Sequence record: PX421306.1
Direction: 5' to 3' (one strand)
Origin: a phage
Length of the DNA: 64,000 nt
This document shows, piece by piece, positions 4,491 through 61,232 of the stretch (the first letter of the stretch is position 1; each line of letters begins with the position of its first letter). The position numbers and the translations under genes were made by a program. The notes under the pieces were generated by a model. That model had not been told where the DNA came from. It made no database searches and was given only the letters and a program-made list of their open reading frames with translations.

Positions 4491-5815
4491 TTGATTTCCT
4501 CTAAATCTTTAGTGTATTCTGTAACTACATCAGTAGTTTTCCAATATTCGTTTTCTTCTTTTTTAGCTTTAGCTTCTTCAGCAAGTTTCTTTGCTTCGTC
4601 GGAAGTCATATGAAAAATGTTCATTCCGACTAGTTTATCAACATAAGAAGAATACATCTCAATTTTAGAAAGTTCTTCGGTCAGTTCTTTACGAGTTTTA
4701 CCCTGCACAACAATTTCACCTGAAATTACTTTCTTAATGAAATGTGCCTTGGCAAAGGCTAAACGAAATGCTGATTCAGTTTCTTTGATTTTGTTATCAA
4801 TTCGTTTTTGGACATAAGTTTTACGAACTTCAACGAAGTCTTTAATTAAATCAACTACGTTATCGTAAACTTGTAACTTTCCTTTCTCGTTGATGACTGT
4901 AATATTTTGGGAACGACGCTCAATCAACCCGAAGTCTTTCATGATTTTTGCATGGCGTTCTTCTTCGTTATCGCTCAAAGAATATTCTTTGCGGAATTTA
5001 ACTTTAAAGCCAAAACCATGCTCACCGCAAGCATCATCCCACGTAATGAAGCCTTTATCTTCAAGCGGGTCTAAGATTTTACTCACATAAGTTTCACGAT
5101 CATACTTATACGGAATCTCAGTGATATGCATTTGAGTTCGTGAAGTAAACTTGTACGTTCCACGAATTTCATATTGACCGTCAATTTCAACGACTTCACC
5201 ACGAAATTCTGGGAATTCTACCTTCGGTTTAGTTACTTTCTTTCCTTGAAGAGCTTGTAGTACAGCTTTCTTGACAGAAGAAACACTATGAGGAAGAATG
5301 TAAGTTGCATAACCAGTTGCAATACCGGAAACACCATTAAGAAGAACAGTAGGAATAATAGGCAAATAGAAAGCAGGCGGAATGTGTTCTTTATCTTGAT
5401 GTACCGGAGCATATTCAGTATCTTTATATACGCTATAGAAATTTTTACTTACACGAGCAAAAATATAACGACTTGCCGCTGCTTTTTGAACGGTACGAGA
5501 ACCAAAGTTTCCTTGACCATCTAACAAAGGAAAGTTATTATTCCAAGTATTAGCCATCAAAGCCCCCGCGTCTTGCGCAGAGTTTTCACCATGATGATAT
5601 CCAAGGTCAGCTACACCACCTGCAATAGAAGCGAGTTTGTGAAACTTATCTTTATTTCCTCGCGCCAAATCAAGAGCTCGAGCAATAACAAATCGTTGGA
5701 CTGGCTTAAATCCATCAATCATATTTGGAATAGCACGATTTTCAACCGTGTACATAGCATAAGCCAGTGCTTCATTATCAATGATACTTTTTAAATCGCG
5801 ATTATTCAGTTGCAT
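4487..5815 (-). CDS. 52: DNA topoisomerase II medium subunit gp52
   Basis: 442 aa; matches remembered T4 gp52 in sequence and length. Confidence 0.95.
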   Translation of the reverse strand: MQLNNRDLKSIIDNEALAYAMYTVENRAIPNMIDGFKPVQRFVIARALDLARGNKDKFHKLASIAGGVADLGYHHGENSAQDAGALMANTWNNNFPLLDGQGNFGSRTVQKAAASRYIFARVSKNFYSVYKDTEYAPVHQDKEHIPPAFYLPIIPTVLLNGVSGIATGYATYILPHSVSSVKKAVLQALQGKKVTKPKVEFPEFRGEVVEIDGQYEIRGTYKFTSRTQMHITEIPYKYDRETYVSKILDPLEDKGFITWDDACGEHGFGFKVKFRKEYSLSDNEEERHAKIMKDFGLIERRSQNITVINEKGKLQVYDNVVDLIKDFVEVRKTYVQKRIDNKIKETESAFRLAFAKAHFIKKVISGEIVVQGKTRKELTEELSKIEMYSSYVDKLVGMNIFHMTSDEAKKLAEEAKAKKEENEYWKTTDVVTEYTKDLEEIK

Positions 5816-5819
5816 AAAT

Positions 5820-5960
5820 TTACCATACTAGTGAATGTAGTGCCATAATAACATCAGAAATGAAAAGCACGACTTGAATTAATCCGAACATTACTCCATA
5901 ATATAGTGCTATCAATAAAATAGCAAGGGCTAATGAATAGCCCAAGATTTTCTTAATCAT
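5820..5960 (-). CDS. Small hydrophobic protein (46 aa)
   Basis: Hand-translated MIKKILGYSLALAILLIALYYGVMFGLIQVV...; start overlaps upstream stop; in the 52-stp interval where T4 has ac. Confidence 0.55.
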   Translation of the reverse strand: MIKKILGYSLALAILLIALYYGVMFGLIQVVLFISDVIMALHSLVW

Positions 5961-9980: not shown

Positions 9981-12158
9981 TTAGGCCGCAAGGGCCTTCA
10001 TAGTTTTAGCGATTTGGGAAACTTCATCATCACTTAAAGAATTGCGATAACCGATGAAGTCGGAAACAATACGGAATTTCTTGGTAAACTCAGCAACCAT
10101 TTTATCACTGTTTTTTGAAGCATTACGTGATAATTCATCAAAAAGATTAGTTACTGTCCAGATGTCATGACCGATGGTATCTTTTCCACCGTTGAAATAT
10201 ACACCCTGTAATGAACTAACCATATTAGCGAGTCGTGTATATTCTTCAGAAACTTCATCTACACTGAAGTACTTCATCATAAAATCTAGTTCAGGATACT
10301 TAATAATTTTATCAATATATCGTTTAGCTGAACTTGAATAACCTACATACTTATCATAATCTACATCATCAAAAGCATCTACATATAAATCACGCAGAGT
10401 TTCAAAAATACATTGGCATTGACCAAGTTCTTTTACCTTTTTCTGCAAAAGCGGACGAATAACATAAAATTCATTAATGCCAATAAGATTCGCCATACGA
10501 GTCAAAATACTCGTAGATGGATGACAAAGCGATGTAGTACCATCCATAGAGAAAATATCAGAACGATGCATGTATGCTACATAACCAGTAATTTCATCTG
10601 CTTCTGATGTGAGCGTAAACAATTCCTCTTTTTCCCAGCGCCCGTCTTTAATTTCAAACTTAAATGCAGTAGCAGCTTTAGGACGAGGAGCTGCACTTTT
10701 TACTACCTTTGGAATATAACTTTTAACTAAAGCTTCGATTTCTGACAAATAATGAATGTTAACTTCATCACTTTCAAACATTGCCATAATATCAGGAAGC
10801 AAATCAATCTGTGATTCTACTTCTGGATTAATAAACAGAAGCCGCTCATTGTGATGAATATTTAAGGTGTTATTAAATTCGCTATCATCTAATGCACGTG
10901 CTAATCCACGGACAATATTAACACGATTTTTAGTATTATCAATAACAATATTAATTTTTGTCGTATTAATACCAAACAGACGATAGCTTGACGCAACGGC
11001 TGAAGTTTCATGGCTTTGCTTAATGCGTTTCAGTCGAGGGTCAAGATTTACTTCATACACAACCCCTGCATTGCATAACTTACTGTCAGGTTCAAACATG
11101 CTCTGCATCTTTTTATATGACAGATTTTTAGTCGTGAATTTGACTGAATTGCTAATCATATAATCTCGAGCAGAATATCCCATCTTCATCAATTCACGGT
11201 ATGTATGACGAGGAGATGTAGATTCTTTAAATCGTTTTACATCTTCATTAAATGCCTGCTCACTGAGCTCTTTAACACGCTCAATAATATTTTTACGAGT
11301 ACGATCATCTAATGAAAGAGCCTCACGCGATGGGGCAATATCAAGTGAACCCATTGGAAACTTAATGTAATTCACTTCATTGCGGATGCTTAACCAGTTA
11401 CGGTCTCTAATAACGCCATCGATAGGATAAACAATACCACCATAGATAGCATATAATCCACCGCGATCTGGCCAGTATCTTTCTGGATTTACACCGTAAT
11501 AGTCATCAAAATCCGGAAAATAATCAATTTCGCGGTCAAGACCATTAATGATAGCCAAATCTTTGAATGGTCGCATGATATAAGAAACTTCATAAGCAAA
11601 GTTTCTAAAGTCTTTTTCTTCAACTGGAACTACGATTTCAATACCAGTTTTATCATCTGGACCCATTTCTTTTACGAATGTAGGTTTAATCTGCGGACCA
11701 TCACCATCCATGTAAGCTACATAACCGCGAATTTCACCTTTATGGTACGAAGTAATACTGAACGTATCAGTATAACTAAACGGAGATTTAGAACCTAAAC
11801 CAAATCCACCAATGAAATCGTTAGATTCAGCCTTAGATGAACTAAAGTATGAATTATACAACCCAGGAGAATTATCATCACCCTGAATATCAAAATCGCT
11901 CATACCCGGACCAAAGTCTCGACAAACAAATCGTGGGTCTAATCGTCCTGGAACTTGAATGATAAATTTTTCAGGATTTCCATTGAGAGCATGGGCATCA
12001 ATCATGTTGGTAATCAATTCACGGACTACTGCACGAATCTTGTTTGTATACAAATCAGATGATAGAATTTTAAATACTTTAGGATTTGCTGCGATGCTAA
12101 ATGCTTTTGATTTAGAACCATTACCAAGAATTGTTTCTTTTTCGGTGGTGATAATCAT
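9981..12158 (-). CDS. rIIA: rIIA protein
   Basis: 725 aa; matches remembered T4 rIIA in sequence and length. Confidence 0.95.
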
Positions 12159-12391: not shown

Positions 12392-12432
12392 CAATTAATT
12401 ATACCACATCCTTGTGGTAAAGTAAACTACTG
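12392..12432 (-). promoter_or_regulatory. Early promoter for the rIIA operon
   Basis: Minus GTTTAC (plus 12422-12427), 18 bp, GTGG + TATAAT (plus 12398-12403). Confidence 0.7.
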
Positions 12433-14244
12433 GCTCATCCATTCTTTACGAAGGTCAGCATTATCTCCCATGAGCATTTCAAAAAGCTCTTTCCAATTCT
12501 CAGGAAGTTTAACAACATCATATACTGGATTTTGAATCATCTCACGATATTCAGATTTTTCCAAAGAGCCAAGTCCCTTAATATAACGGATGCTATGTTT
12601 AGGTAGAGCATCTTTGGCACTCTCATATTCAGCGACTGTATAAAACCATTCTTGTTTTTTACCGACCTGAGCGATGATTACAGGAGTTTTGACAAAGCGA
12701 ATTCTTCCTTGTTCAAACAGTTCTGGCCAATTACTAAAAAATCCGAGCAGAGAAGGATAAATGCTTCCTAGACCATCATGGTCAGCGTCAGTCATAATGG
12801 CAATATTATGATAATTTAAGTTTTCAGCCTTTTCACCAAGAACTAATCCAGTGATTGCGCAAATATCAAACAGTTCTTTATTTTTAAGCATATCAGCATA
12901 TGACATACCCCAACTGTTGAGAACTTTACCACGCAATGGATAACCGCCATGAAGTTCTTTATCACGAACATCAATAAGATATCCGATAGCAGAATCACCC
13001 TCAGTCAAGAAAAGAGTAGTATCAGCATCTTTACCGCAAAGATTCGCTTTAATATGTTTATGAACCTTAGCTTTAGAAGCCTTTTTAGCTGCTTTAGTTT
13101 CTGCTGCTTTTTCTGCCGCCAATTTACGAGCCAAGGCAGCTTCAATGATTGGCATTAAAATTGCTTCATTATTCAAAATAGCACGTGAAATCTTTTTAGC
13201 ATCAAGCTGAATATGACTGCGGATTTCACCGAATGGAGAAGTCAAACGCTCTTTAGTTTGAGAATCAAATCGCATGTTTTTCATATCACGAACAAACATA
13301 ACGATAGTCAAACATTCTTTAACACGTGCTTTAGTTACATCAATTTTGAATTTACGTTTGATTTGTGGAATAAGGTCTTCACAAATATCATCCATAACAC
13401 AGTCAATGTGATGACCACCATTCTTAGTATGAATGTTATTGACGTACGTTAATTGACGAAAACCATCTGGCGAACGACCAACCGCAATAGAACAATTTTC
13501 TTGTTCTTGAACAATAGCATGCTCATCATATTGACGTGCATATTTCTTAAAATTACCCTGAACCTTTTTACCATTAAAGGTAAATTGAATATCAGGATAA
13601 ACTACTGCAAGTGTCTGGAGACGATCCAGTGTAATGTCAAGATAAACTTGAGATAGCTCATTAGTTTCAAATGACATAAAATCAGGAATGAAAGTAACAC
13701 GTGTTCCTTTCCATTTTCCAGGAATAGTTTCCCATGATTTATTTTCCATGCCATTTGAACAACGAACCACAATATTATTTTGACCGTCGCCAGTTTCACC
13801 GACAAACATCACCGAAAAAATGTTAGTTAAACTAGAACCAACACCATTCATACCGCCAGTGACGCGTTCTTTGTCATCACCGAAGTTACCACCTGCTTTT
13901 GGAATAGTCCAGGCAGCAACAGGACCAGGAATTTCTTCACCAGTAGGTGTTTTAACCATCGCTTGTGGAATACCACGACCGTTATCTTCAACTGTTACTT
14001 GATTGTTTTTAATAGTAACATTAATTTTATTCGCGAATTTAAACTTAGTACGAATACCTTCATCTACTGAGTTATCAATAATTTCATCAATAAGCTTAAC
14101 AAGACCAGGTACATACTGAACACTTTCCCATTTACCAAACAGAAAGCGCTCATGCATTTCATTAGCAGAAGAACCAATGTACATGCCGCTACGCTTTTTG
14201 ATATGTTCAATATCGCTCAGAATTTTAATTTCATTCTTAATCAT
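12427..14244 (-). CDS. 39: DNA topoisomerase II large (ATPase) subunit gp39, uninterrupted
   Basis: 605 aa from ATG (track start is an upstream GTG); GyrB-like; covers what T4 splits into gene 39 plus gene 60. Confidence 0.95.
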   Translation of the reverse strand: MIKNEIKILSDIEHIKKRSGMYIGSSANEMHERFLFGKWESVQYVPGLVKLIDEIIDNSVDEGIRTKFKFANKINVTIKNNQVTVEDNGRGIPQAMVKTPTGEEIPGPVAAWTIPKAGGNFGDDKERVTGGMNGVGSSLTNIFSVMFVGETGDGQNNIVVRCSNGMENKSWETIPGKWKGTRVTFIPDFMSFETNELSQVYLDITLDRLQTLAVVYPDIQFTFNGKKVQGNFKKYARQYDEHAIVQEQENCSIAVGRSPDGFRQLTYVNNIHTKNGGHHIDCVMDDICEDLIPQIKRKFKIDVTKARVKECLTIVMFVRDMKNMRFDSQTKERLTSPFGEIRSHIQLDAKKISRAILNNEAILMPIIEAALARKLAAEKAAETKAAKKASKAKVHKHIKANLCGKDADTTLFLTEGDSAIGYLIDVRDKELHGGYPLRGKVLNSWGMSYADMLKNKELFDICAITGLVLGEKAENLNYHNIAIMTDADHDGLGSIYPSLLGFFSNWPELFEQGRIRFVKTPVIIAQVGKKQEWFYTVAEYESAKDALPKHSIRYIKGLGSLEKSEYREMIQNPVYDVVKLPENWKELFEMLMGDNADLRKEWMSQ

Positions 14245-14296
14245 CACTTATCCTCGTTTGGTTTCGGGAATATTATACTCCGGTAATCATAAAGCT

Positions 14297-53229: not shown

Positions 53230-53550
53230 TTATAGCGTAATCCATTCTCGTATTGTCTGAGTTACTACGCGTTCACGAGGCTCGACTAGTTCAACAGTTG
53301 GAACTGCATAATACCAGTCAGAATGGTAAGAACCTGAGCGAGATTCATTTACGGAAACATGTACATTATGTTTCGGACTAAAATAAACGCACTGCCGATA
53401 TTGGCATTTGCCATCTTGTACCCAATCTTCTATTTCGACAGGTTTAAGATAATCCGAAAAATCGAAATCATAATTTTCTGAAAATGCATCATGGTCTTCG
53501 ATGATTTCACTCAGAACTGCATCAACATCTAATTTATTTTCAATATTCAT
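53230..53550 (-). CDS. Hypothetical protein (106 aa)
   Basis: ORF track; ATG confirmed. Confidence 0.75.
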   Translation of the reverse strand: MNIENKLDVDAVLSEIIEDHDAFSENYDFDFSDYLKPVEIEDWVQDGKCQYRQCVYFSPKHNVHVSVNESRSGSYHSDWYYAVPTVELVEPRERVVTQTIREWITL

Positions 53551-53771: not shown

Positions 53772-53950
53772 TTAGAAATAGACTTTTCACCGTTAGAATA
53801 ATAAACTTCGAGTTTAGCACGATTATTTTTAATTTGAATAACCTTTGCTGTCATCAAAGTTCCATACCCGTAATAAACTGCAACCTCATCACCTACATAT
53901 ACCGCGCTTCCGCGGTAGTCATGGATATAATCAGTTCCTTCGAGCATCAT
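53735..53950 (-). CDS. Hypothetical protein (71 aa)
   Basis: ORF track; ATG overlaps nrdC stop. Confidence 0.65.
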   Translation of the reverse strand: MMLEGTDYIHDYRGSAVYVGDEVAVYYGYGTLMTAKVIQIKNNRAKLEVYYSNGEKSISKWKYGDCMVKLG

Positions 53951-54210
53951 TTAAAGTATTCCCGCAATTGGTCAAATCCACCAATATGACTTCCATCAGG
54001 AGCAAATACTTGTGGCATTGTCAAACCAATTTGAGTATCACGACCCAGTTTAGTTAGAAGCTCAGCGATTTTCTCATCATCAAAAACACCTTTTTCCGGC
54101 ATAATGTTGATAAATTCAAACGGCTGTTTCTTCACAGTCAAAAGACGTTTTGCATTATCGCAATACACACATTTATGGATGCTGCTATCATAACCATATA
54201 CTTTAAACAT
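53947..54210 (-). CDS. nrdC: Thioredoxin/glutaredoxin NrdC
   Basis: 87 aa with CVYC active site; matches T4 NrdC. Confidence 0.9.
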   Translation of the reverse strand: MFKVYGYDSSIHKCVYCDNAKRLLTVKKQPFEFINIMPEKGVFDDEKIAELLTKLGRDTQIGLTMPQVFAPDGSHIGGFDQLREYFK

Positions 54211-54455: not shown

Positions 54456-54845
54456 TTAATCCAAAATATTATTAGGCATTGGTTGAACACTCGCAAGTTC
54501 TTTAAAGAACTCAGTAGAGTCAGGTAATTTAACCATTTCCGGAGCATGCTTACTAAATTTATGTTTGCAATGACGGCATTTATATTCAAGTTCCGGTTTA
54601 CGCCAGTTAATCAATTGAACCTGTTCAGTACCGCATTCAGGACAATTAGGAACGTTTTTAGAAGCCCTTTCGCGGCGTTCAACCATAACCATAATGGCAT
54701 CCCAGGCTGGAGGTTTAAAATCTAAATCATCACAACCATGAATCTTTCCACGCATTTCTAAATCGTCTTCTTCACCAGCCATAATAATTTTAATTAGACT
54801 GGAATTACTTGAAGCTGCAATATCTTCTAATAGACGCTTTTTCAT
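54456..54845 (-). CDS. Zinc-finger protein (129 aa)
   Basis: ORF track; Cys pairs CPEC...CRHC. Confidence 0.75.
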
Positions 54846-55771
54846 TTCAGTACCTCAATAGCATTACGTAAACCATTTGCTTTTGCATTAAGAGCTTTTA
54901 ACAATTTAGTGTGTTCGGCAATTTGGGCTTCAACTTCAATCAAACGAGCATTGAGATATTCGCGTTCTTCGCTCAAGCTATCAACCTTTTCTACTTTAGG
55001 TTCTTTTACAACTGGCTTATATGTATTAGGGTTCTTCAGTTTAATTAGAATACGTGAACTGTATAACATTGAACCATTATTTTCGATTTCGTCATACATT
55101 TCTACTACGTCCATGATTTTTAACATCATGCGGAGTTTATAAGATAACGAACGAATAGTTTTGTTGTGCTTATTAATTTCTCTAGCTGTCATGGTGCCGA
55201 GATTACGTGAGTAATAATAAGGAACCTGGATATTAATTAATACTGATGAACCACCTGGCTTGTGTGTTACTTCATCAGCAATAACCCAGTCCTTAACATG
55301 AACTGTATTTGTACGGTCATCGCCCGCGGTAAATAGTTTACGAGCATGCTTAAAAAGCATATTCACTTGGTCATTGAATTGACAAGCAAATTTATCAGCA
55401 AATTTAGTTTCAGGAATGGTAGATAACCAATCAGCCAAATGGGTCTTTTTAACATCGTTAACAATAGTAAATTCAACCAAATCAGTTATAGATGTCTCAG
55501 ATTTAATAAAGCTCGGCTTCATAAAGTTTTTAATGTTATCGCGAGCTACAGTAGAAGATAACATACGAGAACGTTTAAACCATTGAAGCAAATTGCCCAA
55601 CGAATGAGAATAAGCGTTCTGTGTATCTTTACAGATATGATTTTCCTGGCCAACATACTGAAGGAAATCACGAAGAATATTATTGATTACTGCTCTGTGT
55701 CCGATCTGATAATTACGGTGTTTAGTAATAAGACTGTCAAAATAATCAATATAATGTTTACGAGTTTTCAT
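54842..55771 (-). CDS. Coiled-coil family protein 1 (309 aa)
   Basis: N-terminus MKTRKHYIDYF; C-terminal heptad-like E/K/L/A-rich tail; member of a four-gene tandem family. Confidence 0.8.
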   Translation of the reverse strand: MKTRKHYIDYFDSLITKHRNYQIGHRAVINNILRDFLQYVGQENHICKDTQNAYSHSLGNLLQWFKRSRMLSSTVARDNIKNFMKPSFIKSETSITDLVEFTIVNDVKKTHLADWLSTIPETKFADKFACQFNDQVNMLFKHARKLFTAGDDRTNTVHVKDWVIADEVTHKPGGSSVLINIQVPYYYSRNLGTMTAREINKHNKTIRSLSYKLRMMLKIMDVVEMYDEIENNGSMLYSSRILIKLKNPNTYKPVVKEPKVEKVDSLSEEREYLNARLIEVEAQIAEHTKLLKALNAKANGLRNAIEVLK

Positions 55772-55823
55772 GTTCTTCTCACTTGGTTAATGATTTATAC
55801 TCCGAGCCATCCTTGGCTTTAAA

Positions 55824-56825
55824 TTACTTAATTAACTGTAAAGCTTGTTCAAGACGATCCAGGCGATTAACAGATTCTTCCCAAATCCTTTTAGCCTGCT
55901 CATATTCTTTCTGCGCTTTATTAGAAATTTCTAGAACTTCTTTATAAGCCTTTTCTAGTGCAATAACTTCTGGACGAATTTCTACAGGTTCAGACGAATC
56001 ATCAAGATTATCCATTAGTTCCTCAAGTGTAATTTCTTCTTTAGGAGTATTCACAATTTCATCACATTTTTGTTGGTAAATTTCTTTATCAGTCGGTGAG
56101 TACGCACATTTCACTTCACGAAGACTAACTACAATTTTATATCCTTCCCAACCGCATATATTCTTAAAAGGATACGTATGAATATTTTCTACTGTTTCCA
56201 TACAAAGTAATGCGGTTTCTAATTGACGAGTTATAGTGCTAGCAATTGAGAAAAATTTATTAATGTTCTTTTGGTTAGTTTCTGGTGTAAAAAATCCATA
56301 ATTCACAAAAATAGATACTTTATTTTTATCAAGTTCATATTCTTTTATGATAATCATATCAGAAGCCAAAGGATGAATTTGACGATAATCGCCATAACAT
56401 AATTTAGAAGCTGATTTTAGAATCTGTCCTTTGAAAAGTCTGAAATTACTAATCCAACGACGAGTAAAAATATTCTCAGGGTCTTCTTTATTATTAAGAT
56501 GATAAGAATTAACATCACCGAACCAATTATATCCTACTACATCTTTGGTTCGTTTAATTTCTTTCCCAAAATTACCAAGAATATCCCGATTAACCAAATA
56601 TGAAAGAAGACGAGACTCTTTAAAGGTTTTCTTGATAAGATCTTTATCTACACGGCTAGAAATTTTACGAATTTCATGAATAAATTTAGTAGAAGAAACA
56701 ATACCTGCATCAACACTATTGAGCCATTGATTGATAATAGAAAGAACGCTATTTTGGCCAAACATCGGTATAGCTTTATCATCAATAACGCTATTGAATG
56801 ATTTGATATATTCGTTACGAGTCAT
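55824..56825 (-). CDS. Coiled-coil family protein 2 (333 aa)
   Basis: Track ORF trimmed to ATG MTRNEYIKSF with SD GAGGAG; motif R.W...FR..K.IL.SASKL; C-terminal coiled-coil tail. Confidence 0.8.
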   Translation of the reverse strand: MTRNEYIKSFNSVIDDKAIPMFGQNSVLSIINQWLNSVDAGIVSSTKFIHEIRKISSRVDKDLIKKTFKESRLLSYLVNRDILGNFGKEIKRTKDVVGYNWFGDVNSYHLNNKEDPENIFTRRWISNFRLFKGQILKSASKLCYGDYRQIHPLASDMIIIKEYELDKNKVSIFVNYGFFTPETNQKNINKFFSIASTITRQLETALLCMETVENIHTYPFKNICGWEGYKIVVSLREVKCAYSPTDKEIYQQKCDEIVNTPKEEITLEELMDNLDDSSEPVEIRPEVIALEKAYKEVLEISNKAQKEYEQAKRIWEESVNRLDRLEQALQLIK

Positions 56826-56847
56826 ATTAATCTCCTCAGTAGAAAGT

Positions 56848-56888
56848 AAGAACATTATACCACATCCTTGTGGCAAAGTAAACTAGTT
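56848..56888 (-). promoter_or_regulatory. Early promoter (near-duplicate of the rIIA promoter)
   Basis: Minus GTTTACTTTGCCACAAGGATGTGGTATAAT (plus 56854-56883), almost identical to 12398-12427. Confidence 0.65.
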
Positions 56889-57911
56889 TAGTGCATTTAG
56901 TGCGTTGTTCAGTTTAGAACGTTGCTTCGTAAGATTTTTGACTTTTTCTTGAGCTTTTTCTAGCATCTTTTCAGCTTCTAGCACTTCATTAGTTGCTTTA
57001 ACGAGTTCATCATCTACTGCCTTGATAGACTTCTCAATCGCATCGGCATGCCATTTTTCAACAGGTTTAAGACTCGGATTTTCAACAGGAAGAAAATTCA
57101 CTTTATTGAATTTCCATGAATCCTTATTACCTGAACTATACATCCAAAATTTAGGATCGTTTGATGAGTAATTAGATAAATTTAAATTTAAGTTATCTTG
57201 CACTTCTTGCTTTTTCTCTTGCGTGACTTCGTCCTTTCTCAAAAAATCGTATTTAAATGAAACGATCATATCAAGTTCATATGTTGTTGTTTCTAATTTA
57301 AATCGTTCGAAATGTTGTGAAATCTTAGACTGAACAGCGGCAACAACATCCATATACTTAAATGCTTCTGTCAACTGCGATTTAAGGCATTCGCAAATTG
57401 AAAGAGAATTTTTTGTATTAGGTTTAAAGCTAATTCGTGCAGTTCTGTTATTTTCTTTTAATGGTCTTACTTCCATCTGAAGAGTATAACCATCAAATTT
57501 CAGGTTCTTTAAGTTAATATCAGAACCTTTTAATCGACTCGCAGTTGATAAAATTTGCTTTAATTGTCTACGGAACAGAGCAATAAATCTCCATTCAATA
57601 CGATAATGATTTGGATTGAAAAATCCAGATGATAAATCGACCTTACTTTGACCAACGCCTTGAACAAATAAAGGATTTTTATAATCAATAGTTTTACAGA
57701 AATCGGTGAGTTGCTCACGAGCAGTCATTTGTGTAATATAACCCGCTTTACTAAAATTACGCACCCATTCACTGCTATTCGTATACTTAAAGTGATGAAT
57801 AACACGATTAACTTTATCAGGGTCTAAATTATTTTCACACAAAAATGTCATAACATCACGAGTATAGCTGGCGTTACGAACCATATCTTCAATTTGAGAA
57901 CGAGTTTTCAT
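56883..57911 (-). CDS. Coiled-coil family protein 3 (342 aa)
   Basis: N-terminus MKTRSQIEDMV; motif RIEWRFIALFRRQLKQILSTASRL; C-terminal coiled-coil tail. Confidence 0.8.
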   Translation of the reverse strand: MKTRSQIEDMVRNASYTRDVMTFLCENNLDPDKVNRVIHHFKYTNSSEWVRNFSKAGYITQMTAREQLTDFCKTIDYKNPLFVQGVGQSKVDLSSGFFNPNHYRIEWRFIALFRRQLKQILSTASRLKGSDINLKNLKFDGYTLQMEVRPLKENNRTARISFKPNTKNSLSICECLKSQLTEAFKYMDVVAAVQSKISQHFERFKLETTTYELDMIVSFKYDFLRKDEVTQEKKQEVQDNLNLNLSNYSSNDPKFWMYSSGNKDSWKFNKVNFLPVENPSLKPVEKWHADAIEKSIKAVDDELVKATNEVLEAEKMLEKAQEKVKNLTKQRSKLNNALNALN

Positions 57912-57919
57912 GGTGTTCC

Positions 57920-58807
57920 TTAAGATTTAAGTAAATCAACAATTTTAATTAACTTTTCACGCTCAGATTTAGCTTTACTACTCAATCCAGATAGTCTGAA
58001 AATTTCATCGTCATATTGTTGAATAGAAATATTCAGCTCTTCAATCTGCTTATTAAAATAATCAATTTGTTCAGAATGTTTTTCATTACTACGAACTGGT
58101 ACAGGTTTTGCAGGCAATGTAGTTGAACTGGATTCATTCGGGCGATAAATTAAAATACAACTTGAACCAATAGGGCATTTTGCACCAGATGAATATTCTA
58201 ATGTTCCAGCTTCTTTTAAAACTTCAAAAGCTAAACAGAGATGATGCCCCATATTAACATAATCTGTAGAGTGAGCTCTGATGTAATAATCATCTCCACG
58301 AATACTAAATTTAAAGCATTTAAGGTCTTCTGTATTATTGGTCTTAAAAATCATTTGTTTATCTAGACCTTTAGCTAATCGAGCGCCCAATGCTAATAAT
58401 CGTCGTTGATTTTCCCACAAATCTGCAATCATTTGGTCAAATGATAACTTCGGCATTAGTCGACCATAAAGGTCATATCCTTTATTATAATTACGAAGGA
58501 TTTCACTCGCGTTAATACGAGACAATGCTCCAATTTTATTAAGGGCTTTCATAATACGATTAGATAAACCCATTCCAGACCCGTTTGTTCGCTGTAAATG
58601 TTTTTCTAATCCAAATCCAATATCAACTTTAAACTTATCTAAAATTTCGGCGTGAACATCTCTGTCGATAACATTCAAATCCAAAGTTGGGTTAAATCTA
58701 TGAAAAAATTTATCTGACTCTCCACGACGAAGTACAGTCCATTCATTCAATTTTTTATTAACTAAAGATTTAATTACTGCATTGACATTATTAATTACTA
58801 CTGACAT
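57920..58807 (-). CDS. Coiled-coil family protein 4 (295 aa)
   Basis: Track ORF trimmed from TTG to ATG with SD GAGGAAAAT; motif LWENQRRLLALGARLAKGL; C-terminal coiled-coil tail. Confidence 0.8.
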   Translation of the reverse strand: MSVVINNVNAVIKSLVNKKLNEWTVLRRGESDKFFHRFNPTLDLNVIDRDVHAEILDKFKVDIGFGLEKHLQRTNGSGMGLSNRIMKALNKIGALSRINASEILRNYNKGYDLYGRLMPKLSFDQMIADLWENQRRLLALGARLAKGLDKQMIFKTNNTEDLKCFKFSIRGDDYYIRAHSTDYVNMGHHLCLAFEVLKEAGTLEYSSGAKCPIGSSCILIYRPNESSSTTLPAKPVPVRSNEKHSEQIDYFNKQIEELNISIQQYDDEIFRLSGLSSKAKSEREKLIKIVDLLKS

Positions 58808-58814
58808 ATTTTCC

Positions 58815-59216
58815 TCACTCAATTTTACTGATTATGCGGAATAAGATTGAACAGACTATATAAGTACCACATATAGACTGAACTAATGCCATTCCAAAGA
58901 ACCAAACAATATTATCAAACCATGTCTGTTTTACGTCGAAAGGACGTAAACTTACAGTAATATTATCACCTTTTTCTATTGAAGAATACATCTCTGGGGA
59001 AATATATTCACTAAATCTATAACCGTCTTTGAGTTCATATACGGCAATAAACGATAAACTAGACCCTTTTCCTTGTGTTCCTGTAATGGTATTAACTACA
59101 GTAACATCATAATCTTTATAATGCATATAATCATTAATTGCGTAATAACCGTATGCAACTACTACACATAAACAACATATCAATAAATTCAATCTTTTAA
59201 TTATCAACTGTTTCAT
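58815..59216 (-). CDS. Membrane protein (133 aa)
   Basis: ORF track; hydrophobic N- and C-terminal segments. Confidence 0.75.
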   Translation of the reverse strand: MKQLIIKRLNLLICCLCVVVAYGYYAINDYMHYKDYDVTVVNTITGTQGKGSSLSFIAVYELKDGYRFSEYISPEMYSSIEKGDNITVSLRPFDVKQTWFDNIVWFFGMALVQSICGTYIVCSILFRIISKIE

Positions 59217-59271
59217 AATAATCTCAATTAAAAGGGCTTAGAACCATTATACCATCCTTGGTATAAAGCGG

Positions 59272-59799
59272 TTATGCGAGTACCGTCTTTAACCGTTCTT
59301 CAAACTTCCGAAGAGTATTTTGGCGTTCAGCTCTTTGCTTTTTGTAAGTTTCAATACGCTCTGAAATGAGAGTGTATCGTTCATTTACTGATTCTTTCAT
59401 AAAATCAGGAATTTCACGAGAAGCTTTAATCTCGTCAAATTTATCAATAACAGCTTGCTCTTCAGCAATTAAGTTATCATACATTAAAATATCTTTCTTG
59501 ATGAACTCAATATCTTCTTGAGTTACACGAGATAATTTAGATGCTTTATCCTTTTTGTACTGTTCGTTAGTATCACGAGACCAGTGTAATGTACGATTTT
59601 TATTCGTATTTTTGTAAATTTCTACAATACCGATCTCATCAATAATAACGATCCAATTCCAACGCGATTTGTAAATTTGTCCTCCATCAACAGTGATTTC
59701 ACCTCCGATTGAGATGTCATTAAAGAACTTGCTTTGTGCTTCAGATTTAAATTTACCATCGTTGTAATTTACCAAGTTGAAAATATCTTTAGCGTTCAT
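59272..59799 (-). CDS. Hypothetical protein (175 aa)
   Basis: ORF track; ATG after conserved leader ...GGAGGAACAGAAAATG. Confidence 0.8.
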   Translation of the reverse strand: MNAKDIFNLVNYNDGKFKSEAQSKFFNDISIGGEITVDGGQIYKSRWNWIVIIDEIGIVEIYKNTNKNRTLHWSRDTNEQYKKDKASKLSRVTQEDIEFIKKDILMYDNLIAEEQAVIDKFDEIKASREIPDFMKESVNERYTLISERIETYKKQRAERQNTLRKFEERLKTVLA

Positions 59800-60263: not shown

Positions 60264-61232
60264 TTATTTCAGAAGAGTAACCTCAGCAATTTCTTCCCAA
60301 CCGTTTTTGTCGGTCATAATAAAGTCAGCAAGATAAAGAGCAGTACGCAGTGAAACATTGCGTAAACGGTTAACATTAACTTTCATCCATGATAATGCTT
60401 TATAAGTTTCTTCATCAGAAAGACCACGCTTTTGCATCATGTCAGTTGAAAGAATAACATCTTCAACCCTGACCATAATTTCTTCATTAGTGTGAACACC
60501 CAAATCCAAATAAACCGAGCGGGACACTAATGCTTGTAAATGTGGAGCAAGTTTAGTACCACGGTCTAATTCGCGGTCAATGTCAACGTTTGTGATAAAA
60601 ACAATCGTTCCTTTAAATTCAAACTCACGGTCAATGCCTTTTTCTTCTAAGTAAGAAGACGCAGTGCTCCAGCAGACTTTACGGGTCTCTCCAGTGTCCA
60701 GAGCAGCTTTTAGAAGATTAAGAATGTCCATATCAGAGAAAACATCCACATCATCAATTAAAAGGACAGAATTCTCTTCACGATTATTCCAAAGCTGCTC
60801 ATAAAGACCAATACCAGAGATTTTACCATTAATGCTTTTATATTCAATGTATCCAATATCATTTGCTTTATTTAAAGCTTTATCTAAAGAATACGTTTTA
60901 CCAATACCTGCTGCGCCAGAGATAATTAATGAACGAATATTTCCATTAATAATACCGTTCGTCATCATTCCCATAACATTAAATCTTTTATTAATGCGGG
61001 TTTTCATATCTTCATATGATTCTTTAACTTCTTCAACTTTTACACCATCATATGAAATATCTGATTTGTAAACCCAAACACCGCGACGTTTACCGTCAAT
61101 TTCAACAAAAACTTTACCATCTCCTTGTGCATCTACCGGAGCATTATCTGGGAACCATTCGCCTAAGAGCTCAAAAGTTCCAGAGATTTCTTTACCGAAG
61201 TAGATACCCTTATTGATAGTTACAGTTTTCAT
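60264..61232 (-). CDS. P-loop AAA-type ATPase (322 aa)
   Basis: Trimmed to ATG after leader GGAGAATAAAATG; Walker A GAAGIGKT, Walker B VLLIDDVD, sensor-like TIVFITN. Confidence 0.85.
   Translation of the reverse strand: MKTVTINKGIYFGKEISGTFELLGEWFPDNAPVDAQGDGKVFVEIDGKRRGVWVYKSDISYDGVKVEEVKESYEDMKTRINKRFNVMGMMTNGIINGNIRSLIISGAAGIGKTYSLDKALNKANDIGYIEYKSINGKISGIGLYEQLWNNREENSVLLIDDVDVFSDMDILNLLKAALDTGETRKVCWSTASSYLEEKGIDREFEFKGTIVFITNVDIDRELDRGTKLAPHLQALVSRSVYLDLGVHTNEEIMVRVEDVILSTDMMQKRGLSDEETYKALSWMKVNVNRLRNVSLRTALYLADFIMTDKNGWEEIAEVTLLK

Follow-up and report, generated by a model that had tools for sequence, protein, structure and literature searches.

The nrdC.3-nrdC.6 array of a T4-like phage: four probable paralogs with conserved helical tails and a candidate role in counter-defence

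Introduction

Four consecutive genes lie on the minus strand of a 64,000-nucleotide stretch of phage DNA (sequence record PX421306.1; the whole stretch is hereafter the window). An original prediction, made from the letters of the window alone, described them as a tandem array of paralogs with coiled-coil tails. Whether the four genes descend from a single ancestor, and what they do for the phage, are the questions raised by this locus. The genes very probably have a common origin, and their products are best explained as early proteins directed against host defences, in which variable bodies would bind the targets and the tails would oligomerise. The probability of this reading is put at about 0.6.

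Identity and limits of the array

The 6.3 kb surrounding the array are 96-97% identical at the DNA level to Tequatrovirus genomes (746 matching phage records), and the gene order agrees with that of nrdC.3 to nrdC.6 as annotated in T4, ACG-C40 and other records. On sequence grounds the window is assigned to a Tequatrovirus, a T4-like phage, and the array to the nrdC.3-nrdC.4-nrdC.5-nrdC.6 block. The members, labelled A to D in profile comparisons, are as follows.

54842-55771, minus strand: nrdC.3 (member A), open reading frame (ORF) of 309 amino acids (aa); phrog_1435, E 2e-116
55824-56825, minus strand: nrdC.4 (member B), ORF of 333 aa, ATG after GAGGAG; phrog_1435, E 7e-168
56883-57911, minus strand: nrdC.5 (member C), ORF of 342 aa; Pfam DUF7235 (PF23882), E 2e-126
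57920-58807, minus strand: nrdC.6 (member D), ORF of 295 aa, ATG after GAGGAA; phrog_2257, E 3e-152

The four minus-strand genes were found with the order and lengths given by the original prediction. The array end is to be moved, as it had been placed at 58822, the upstream TTG codon at which the mechanical ORF of nrdC.6 begins, and the ATG lies at 58807, after GAGGAA. The mechanical ORF of nrdC.4 similarly begins at a TTG (56876). The ATG starts of both nrdC.4 (56825) and nrdC.6 (58807) are preceded by good Shine-Dalgarno sequences. The start of nrdC.3 and the stop of nrdC.2 overlap by 4 nt. Three proteins begin with MKTRKHY, MTRNEY and MKTRSQ, as had been noticed, and the fourth with MSVVINN.

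NrdC.4 is 96% identical to its T4 counterpart. NrdC.5 is 95% identical to T4 NrdC.5 over 342 aa (body 97%, tail 89%), and its gene sits between nrdC.6 and nrdC.4 as in T4, which identifies it as the T4 ortholog. The phage is not T4 itself, because NrdC.3 is only 60% identical to the T4 copy (78% to that of Mosigvirus), and because the topoisomerase subunit is unsplit. The latter is encoded by a single 606-aa ORF (12427-14247, minus strand); in T4 this region is split into genes 39 and 60, a split that the window phage lacks.

Two peculiarities of deposited records concern the array genes. In the T4 reference AF158101.6 (locus L005, 5001-5887), NrdC.6 is annotated as a 275-aa protein with an unrelated C-terminus (...EELIFLFNNMMMKFSDYLD), and the gene is covered by tblastn only in two pieces, while KJ477684, another T4 record, is intact. 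A frameshift, or an error in sequencing, seems to have removed the conserved tail. In addition, every nrdC.x gene carries a "thioredoxin" label in many deposited genomes. None of the four array proteins gave a thioredoxin match in a Pfam scan, and the labels seem to be an error of annotation that the gene names have propagated.

Probable common origin of the four genes

The kinship of nrdC.3 and nrdC.4 is apparent from simple comparison (BLASTP identity 25% over 270 aa, E 4e-8; hhalign 98%), and both proteins match one family model, phrog_1435 (PF26897 in the precomputed Pfam column). The remaining relationships emerge from profile-profile alignments, for which family alignments were built from database homologs and syntenic genes of other genera. 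Full-length B and C families were aligned at 66% by hhalign. When tails were removed, A-C and B-C comparisons yielded 71% and 49%, respectively, both in one consistent register. Comparison of a joint AB profile with a C profile enriched with the 326-aa protein of Klebsiella phage Mineola raised the figure to 87.5% (P 3.6e-6); AB-C profile-profile values span 74-88%. The Mineola protein matches C at 83%. The D family is reached through a 332-aa family of Karamvirus, which matches D at 85%, and the enriched D plus Karamvirus profile is aligned to AB at 71.6% (P 3.5e-5). The neighbouring NrdC.2, NrdC.7, NrdC.8, NrdC.9 and NrdC.10, used as negative controls, gave 0.9% or less against each family. 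One further model, phrog_26858, weakly matches both B and C.

The region aligned by hhalign defines a core common to the four families:

56160-56636, minus strand: homologous core, NrdC.4 residues 64-222, including both shared motifs

The central motif that had been recognised in three proteins is brought into a single register by profile-profile alignment in B (RRWISNFRLFKGQILKSASKL), C (EWRFIALFRRQLKQILSTASRL) and D (IADLWENQRRLLALGARLAKG). A second shared motif lies about 45 residues upstream (FKESRLLSYLVNRDILGNFGKE / FSKAGYITQMTAREQLTDFCKT / LNKIGALSRINASEILRNYNKG). The four family hidden Markov models (HMMs) match no further ORF of the 64 kb. NrdC.8 (175 aa; 59272-59799, minus strand) likewise has a charged helical C-terminus (...YKKQRAERQNTLRKFEERLKTVLA), but was rejected as a fifth member of the array, since hhalign gave 0.3% or less to the four families.

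Structure models were generated for NrdC.4 and NrdC.6, and used to search BFVD with Foldseek. The AlphaFold2 model of NrdC.4 (predicted local distance difference test, pLDDT, 78.9; predicted TM-score, pTM, 0.63) consists of a helical domain (residues 1-84), an alpha/beta domain (88-235), a low-confidence linker, and a tail helix (285-332). In the alpha/beta domain three strands are followed by a long helix, two strands, a second long helix and two more strands. In the NrdC.6 model (pLDDT 77) the elements follow one another as in NrdC.4, and the sheet is shorter. The shared architecture proposed for the family comprises an N-terminal helical domain, an alpha/beta domain, a poorly ordered linker, and a heptad-like C-terminal helix of 45-60 residues, and the first long helix of the alpha/beta domain carries the conserved R/W...L..A.(K/R)L motif.

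Both models found significant full-length matches to uncharacterised proteins of about 300-375 aa from T4-like phages, the hosts of which are Acinetobacter, Pectobacterium, Serratia, Erwinia, Klebsiella, Enterobacter and Yersinia. Three targets are common to the two models, over 311-351 alignment columns:

A0A7G3KGN9: E 1.8e-6 (B model), E 4.1e-7 (D model)
A0A0A0PZG4: E 5.6e-7 (B model), E 2.6e-6 (D model)
E5EPQ6: E 1.4e-6 (B model), E 1.9e-5 (D model)

In the search with the NrdC.6 model a clean gap separates rank 9 (E 4e-4) from rank 10 (E 0.15). No solved relative was found by sequence and profile searches of PDB, and nothing scored above threshold for A, B or D in Pfam, NCBIfam or PADLOC. 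Matches to designed helical repeats in PDB (E 2e-4) were ignored, as they extended over no more than 58 residues within the N-terminal helices. Also discarded were weak matches to PHL, the XerD N-terminal domain, DUF3905, BrxC and the SEC10/PgrA surface-exclusion domain, which were below cut-off or fell within the helical tail.

Several observations weigh against a single origin, and may be accommodated by supposing that only nrdC.3 and nrdC.4 are true paralogs, whereas nrdC.5 and nrdC.6, although similar in size, have other origins and gained helical tails independently, the residual similarities being artefacts of helical or biased sequence. Among all pairs of the four proteins, A-B is the only one significant in BLASTP. 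The link of C to A, B and D rests on profile comparisons of 49-88%, and D, when its profile is not enriched, is aligned to A, B or C at 0.3-7%. Tail-only comparisons are weak. An A+B HMM run against 1.8 billion representative proteins returned only 10 proteins, none of them C- or D-type at E <= 1e-3; the family is narrow at the sequence level. PHROGs and Pfam recognise three separate families: C matches PF23882 with 421.8 bits (cut-off 30) over residues 1-342, with no match of A, B or D to that model, and D has a full-length match to phrog_2257, all its 105 homologs carrying PF26899 (precomputed Pfam column). TM-scores to the common BFVD targets are only 0.41-0.49, with large root-mean-square deviations. 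Such modest values are expected from differently placed long helices and domains; they fit flexible multi-domain models and are no proof of one fold.

Independent acquisition of tails by unrelated genes is nonetheless improbable. It does not account for the single register of the tail-less A-C and B-C alignments, for the same two motifs being aligned by the enriched profiles, for the silence of the neighbouring-gene controls, or for phrog_26858 matching both B and C. The AlphaFold2 models of B and D, obtained independently, share three full-length targets; one target of the D model is a 326-aa protein of phage Mineola, and it is a 326-aa Mineola gene that matches the C profile. Finally, the position of the array is kept across genera. 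Paralogy of the four genes, as originally proposed, is hence upheld by profiles for A, B and C, by the enriched profile for D, and by the B and D models, but not by simple pairwise similarity, and the genes are plausibly ancient tandem duplicates of a single one.

Family-specific C-terminal tails

The tails were delimited, and their heptad periodicity was assessed by comparing the score at a/d positions with that of 500 shuffles; counts refer to shuffles reaching the score.

54845-54988, minus strand: NrdC.3 tail, residues 262-309; E/K/L/A/N/Q/R fraction 0.72; heptad weak (77/500)
55827-55979, minus strand: NrdC.4 tail, residues 283-333; single helix 285-332 (48 residues) in the AlphaFold2 model; heptad 5/500
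56886-57068, minus strand: NrdC.5 tail, residues 282-342; heptad 0/500
57923-58081, minus strand: NrdC.6 tail, residues 243-295; helices 245-271 and 276-294 in the AlphaFold2 model; heptad 1/500

All four proteins had been credited with heptad-like tails rich in E, K, L, A and N. As to composition, this holds for A, B and C (E/K/L/A/N/Q/R fraction in the last 50 residues 0.72-0.76, versus 0.41-0.46 in the bodies), and less so for D, the tail of which is less biased (0.54 versus 0.46 in the body). As to helix and heptad periodicity, it holds for B, C and D, and the signal is weak in A. The NrdC.5 profile weakly matches the coiled coils of BAP31 and SMC.

Tails are better conserved than bodies. 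Mean identities of tail and body in the four ortholog groups are 84 versus 65, 67 versus 55, 64 versus 58 and 67 versus 47%. Tails of NrdC.3 orthologs are 78-91% identical (bodies 57-80%), and tail conservation exceeds that of the body in 12 of 13 NrdC.4 orthologs and in all 17 NrdC.6 orthologs (tail 53-70%, body about 40%). Residues N326, Q330, K333, L334, A337, A340 and L341 are invariant in the NrdC.5 tail. Since conservation is above that of the body within ortholog groups, the tail is a constrained, family-specific functional element rather than a spacer. Tail-only hhalign comparisons between families reached at most 37%, and because of this weakness tails are not to be regarded as one common module.

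One 332-aa relative (P0227) has a tail nearly identical to that of the Gaprivervirus NrdC.4-type protein and a strongly diverged body, which fits either body/tail swapping by recombination or very unequal rates of change.

Distribution and evolution

Related genes are found directly upstream of nrdC.2-nrdC.1-nrdC in T4-like phages (upstream of nrdC in Acj61). Copy number varies.

Tequatrovirus: four copies
Mosigvirus: three copies (D-, C- and A-type)
Dhakavirus and Gaprivervirus: three copies (D-, C- and B-type)
Acinetobacter phage Acj61: two copies
Jiaodavirus and Karamvirus: one copy

A helical tail ends every such protein across these phage groups. A search for related loci with the Mineola protein found none, and one with the Karamvirus protein found only four.

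The array evolves faster than its surroundings. Identity across genera is 22-50% for array proteins, versus 66-89% for NrdC, NrdC.8 and NrdC.10. The ratio of nonsynonymous to synonymous substitution rates (dN/dS), calculated against T4 and UFV05, is 0.08-0.31 for the array and 0.01-0.09 for the same three neighbours, i.e. two- to ten-fold higher in the array. Two deep alleles of nrdC.3 exist in Tequatrovirus (60% aa identity, dS about 1) amid flanking genes 96-99% identical; the window allele is nearer to Mosigvirus (78%) than to T4 (60%), which suggests exchange between genera. The family had been called diversifying, and faster divergence, higher dN/dS and the two nrdC.3 alleles agree with the term to a limited extent. 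In the opposite direction, dN/dS is below 1 for every gene, so that there is no gene-wide positive selection, a point to be held against an arms-race reading.

Losses and rearrangements were recorded in ACG-C40, proteins P0119 and P0121, and hit H110 (phage Pinarejo). In ACG-C40 (locus L004, 5805-6216) only nrdC.6 and an nrdC.5'-'nrdC.3 remnant are left, a deletion having fused the beginning of nrdC.5 with the end of nrdC.3. Protein P0119 is an nrdC.5/nrdC.3 fusion, and Pinarejo has kept only the last 47 codons of nrdC.6. In Shigella phage Sf25 nrdC.6 carries an internal duplication and encodes 378 aa. Array members are dispensable, as they have been lost in viable natural isolates.

Promoters of the array

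Array genes appear to lie behind early or middle-type promoter sequences, one located upstream of nrdC.7-nrdC.6-nrdC.5, the other between the nrdC.5 stop and the nrdC.4 start.

56853-56883, minus strand: T4-type early promoter, GTTTACTTTGCCACAAGGATGTGGTATAATG (GTTTAC, 18 nt, TATAAT; TGG before the -10), annotated in phage Lutter and identical in T4
12397-12427, minus strand: twin of this promoter, upstream of rIIA.1/rIIA (rIIA, 9981-12158)
59246-59270, minus strand: promoter-like element upstream of nrdC.7-nrdC.6-nrdC.5, with a MotA-box-like CGCTTTA, hairpin TACCA-AGGA-TGGTA, and TATAAT
55794-55818, minus strand: element in the nrdC.4/nrdC.3 intergenic region, hairpin AGCCA-AGGA-TGGCT followed by GGAG and TATAAA

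The early promoter would drive nrdC.4, nrdC.3 and the genes beyond. The original prediction had spotted a near-duplicate of the rIIA promoter inside the array, and the match is indeed of 29 of 31 bases. The two copies are 44 kb apart in the same orientation, and the twin begins one base past the stop of the 606-aa topoisomerase ORF. A third copy within 3 mismatches is missing in the 64 kb (0 expected by chance). At the place matching the 59246-59270 element a promoter is annotated in Lutter, and conservation of the element extends to T4, Dhakavirus and Gaprivervirus. By its likeness to the known MotA-box consensus, it is plausibly a middle promoter.

Function of the family

Experimental information is available for one member. 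A T4 clone with a large deletion lost plating on strain ECOR17, and plating was restored by deleting dsr1 in the host; plasmid-borne dsr1 protected MG1655, and T4 nrdC.5, supplied alone in trans, enabled the deletion mutant to infect Dsr1 cells again (Srikant, Guegler and Laub, eLife 2022, PMC9391042). Given the 95% identity to the T4 protein, NrdC.5 of the window presumably counteracts Dsr1 as well. No paper on nrdC.3, nrdC.4 or nrdC.6, or on the four genes as a family, was found among searchable papers. The guess that the array acts in host interaction, exclusion or counter-defence is thus borne out for nrdC.5 only, and the accompanying statement that no function could be assigned stands for the other three genes, but not for nrdC.5. 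T6 gp49.2 was reported in 2026 to inhibit OLD defence (PMC13096335), and several genes of the pin-nrdC.6 stretch are thus directed against host defences. In the window a 106-aa ORF (53230-53550, minus strand) occupies the place of T4 gene 49.2, some 1.3 kb beyond the downstream end of the array; orthology is by position only.

According to the reading favoured here, the array would encode early, cytoplasmic and dispensable accessory inhibitors of the proteins with which the host defends itself against phages. For NrdC.5 the target is Dsr1, a SIR2-type NADase, which others have shown to be counteracted by the T4 ortholog, and direct binding is the presumed means. The fast-evolving body of each paralog may bind a different host defence protein, NrdC.3, NrdC.4 and NrdC.6 acting on systems other than Dsr1. 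EcDsr1 is reported to have a tetratricopeptide repeat (TPR) sensor, shared with Avs7, which is triggered by the phage major capsid protein (2026 preprint, PMC12803255). The capsid protein is made late, so an early inhibitor could occupy the sensor in advance, and binding of NrdC.5 to the sensor domain of Dsr1 before its trigger appears seems the most plausible mode of action. The conserved, family-specific tail would form a homo-oligomeric coiled coil, conferring avidity against oligomeric defence proteins.

What weakens this reading is that, among the four proteins, experiments bear on NrdC.5 alone; anti-defence roles of NrdC.3, NrdC.4 and NrdC.6 are extrapolated from it. Tail oligomerisation, direct binding to Dsr1 and sensor block are predictions, and NrdC.5 could act on Dsr1 indirectly. 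Such an indirect effect is assumed by an alternative in which the four proteins serve early in host takeover or in regulation, for instance by binding DNA or the nucleoid, and not as defence inhibitors. The early or middle-type promoter sequences ahead of all four genes would suit such factors equally, and no report of NrdC.5-Dsr1 binding was found in searchable papers. Member A weakly matches the N-terminal SAM-like (core-binding) domain of tyrosine recombinases (Pfam E 0.06, NCBIfam E 1.4e-3); the match was rejected, being found in A only and far under curated cut-offs (14 bits versus 22.3 in Pfam, 18 bits versus 279 in NCBIfam; 14-18 bits versus 22-330 throughout). Takeover factors are unlikely, because the genes are dispensable and lost in natural isolates, because they evolve much faster than their neighbours, which is more in keeping with antagonistic co-evolution than with a housekeeping task in takeover, and because plasmid-borne nrdC.5 alone rescues plating on Dsr1 cells (PMC9391042).

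Still less credit, indeed hardly any, is due to the notion that the array proteins are associated with the phage tail or neck, as structural or assembly factors related to the gpU-like tail terminators. Tail terminators score little better than nitroreductases, ribosomal proteins and other folds of the two-layer alpha/beta type, promoters are of early and not of late type, and the genes are missing or truncated in viable phages. Deletions in evolved T4 clones, one of which removed nrdC.5, spared all genes essential for virion production (PMC9391042). A tail terminator would be marked by a strong match in fold, by late expression and by a part in the virion structure, and these were not found. 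Early inhibitors of host defence, of which NrdC.5 provides the example, thus remain the preferred explanation for the four genes.

Hairpins in promoters and intergenic regions

The spacer of the nrdC.4 promoter, as well as that of its rIIA.1 twin, contains the hairpin CCACA-AGGA-TGTGG. Shorter hairpins, built on CCAAGGATGG, are found upstream of nrdC.7 and in the nrdC.4/nrdC.3 gap; this 10-mer occurs twice in the 64 kb, versus 0.01 expected. Hairpins between array genes are also found in Mosigvirus, Dhakavirus and Gaprivervirus.

55807-55816, 56860-56873, 59252-59261 and 12404-12417, all minus strand: hairpin sites in the window
4928-4937 and 5948-5957 of locus L002; 5948-5957 and 7954-7963 of locus L006; 5774-5783 and 7886-7895 of locus L007: hairpin sites in other loci

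The hairpins between array genes in Mosigvirus, Dhakavirus and Gaprivervirus are located about 10-15 nt past the upstream stop codon, and 35-43 nt ahead of the next ATG. The hairpins as a whole feature an invariant CCA-AGGA-TGG core and covarying outer stem pairs in four genera, in which flanking coding sequences are very diverged. Over nine distinct sites 91% of the cells pair, and 4 of 6 pairs have changed on both sides; the inner three pairs were fixed by the search design, and the outer three were free. The covariation score is 0.62, versus 0.15 in shuffles (0 of 500 reaching it), and collapses when partners are slid. The hairpin could be either a promoter-spacer element or a structure of read-through RNA. 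A paper on RegB sites was considered as an explanation, and did not account for it.

Neighbouring genes

53947-54210: nrdC, the glutaredoxin gene
60264-61232, minus strand: NrdC.10, P-loop NTPase with weak AAA and STAND-like Pfam matches

Conservation of NrdC.10 is far above that of the array. In tblastn it matched 1312 phage records, including Vibrio, Aeromonas and Acinetobacter phages and several jumbo phages.

Significance and comparison with known systems

Searchable papers appear to contain no description of the four genes as being of common origin and alike in architecture, of the occurrence of the locus among T4-like phages, or of the family-specific tails and their conservation. Phage anti-defence proteins have mostly been found singly, and here a validated one, NrdC.5, sits within a tandem family of four probable remote paralogs, in an array occupying the same locus in many T4-like phages. 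NrdC.3, NrdC.4 and NrdC.6 can at once be put forward, in the phage studied best, as candidate inhibitors of further host defences, and body/tail swaps offer a simple design to map specificity. The array may also be a route to the host systems targeted, including one restricting T4 mutants on wild E. coli strains. It changes no principle, because the expansion and diversification of gene families in arms races is well known.

Of the systems to which the array may be compared, T4 NrdC.5 (DUF7235, PF23882) is represented by an ortholog, the 342-aa gene of the window, 95% identical, at the same position and with the same promoter downstream. The other three genes, with identities of about 20-25% or less, are probable remote paralogs of it and belong to other PHROG and Pfam families. 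Resemblance to the tail terminator fold (lambda gpU, SPP1 gp17, Mu and T5 terminators) is marginal by score, and membership is not claimed; NrdC proteins differ in their additional N-terminal helical domain and long tail, in early-type promoters, and in being dispensable. DSAD1 of SPbeta-like Bacillus phages, as portrayed in published abstracts, is similar by analogy only, since it silences a SIR2-type NADase defence, DSR2, activated by the late tail tube protein. It belongs to another phage group, its target is DSR2 and not Dsr1, and in the texts consulted it features as a single gene, with no paralog array or coiled-coil tail reported. The array resembles dmd-tifA-adfA, the island directed against toxin-antitoxin systems, and the anti-OLD gp49.2 in that these are dispensable, fast-evolving early genes of variable regions, each directed against one host system. 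Those clusters are made up of unrelated small proteins, whereas nrdC.3-nrdC.6 encode probable paralogs of about 300 aa built on what appears to be a shared architecture.

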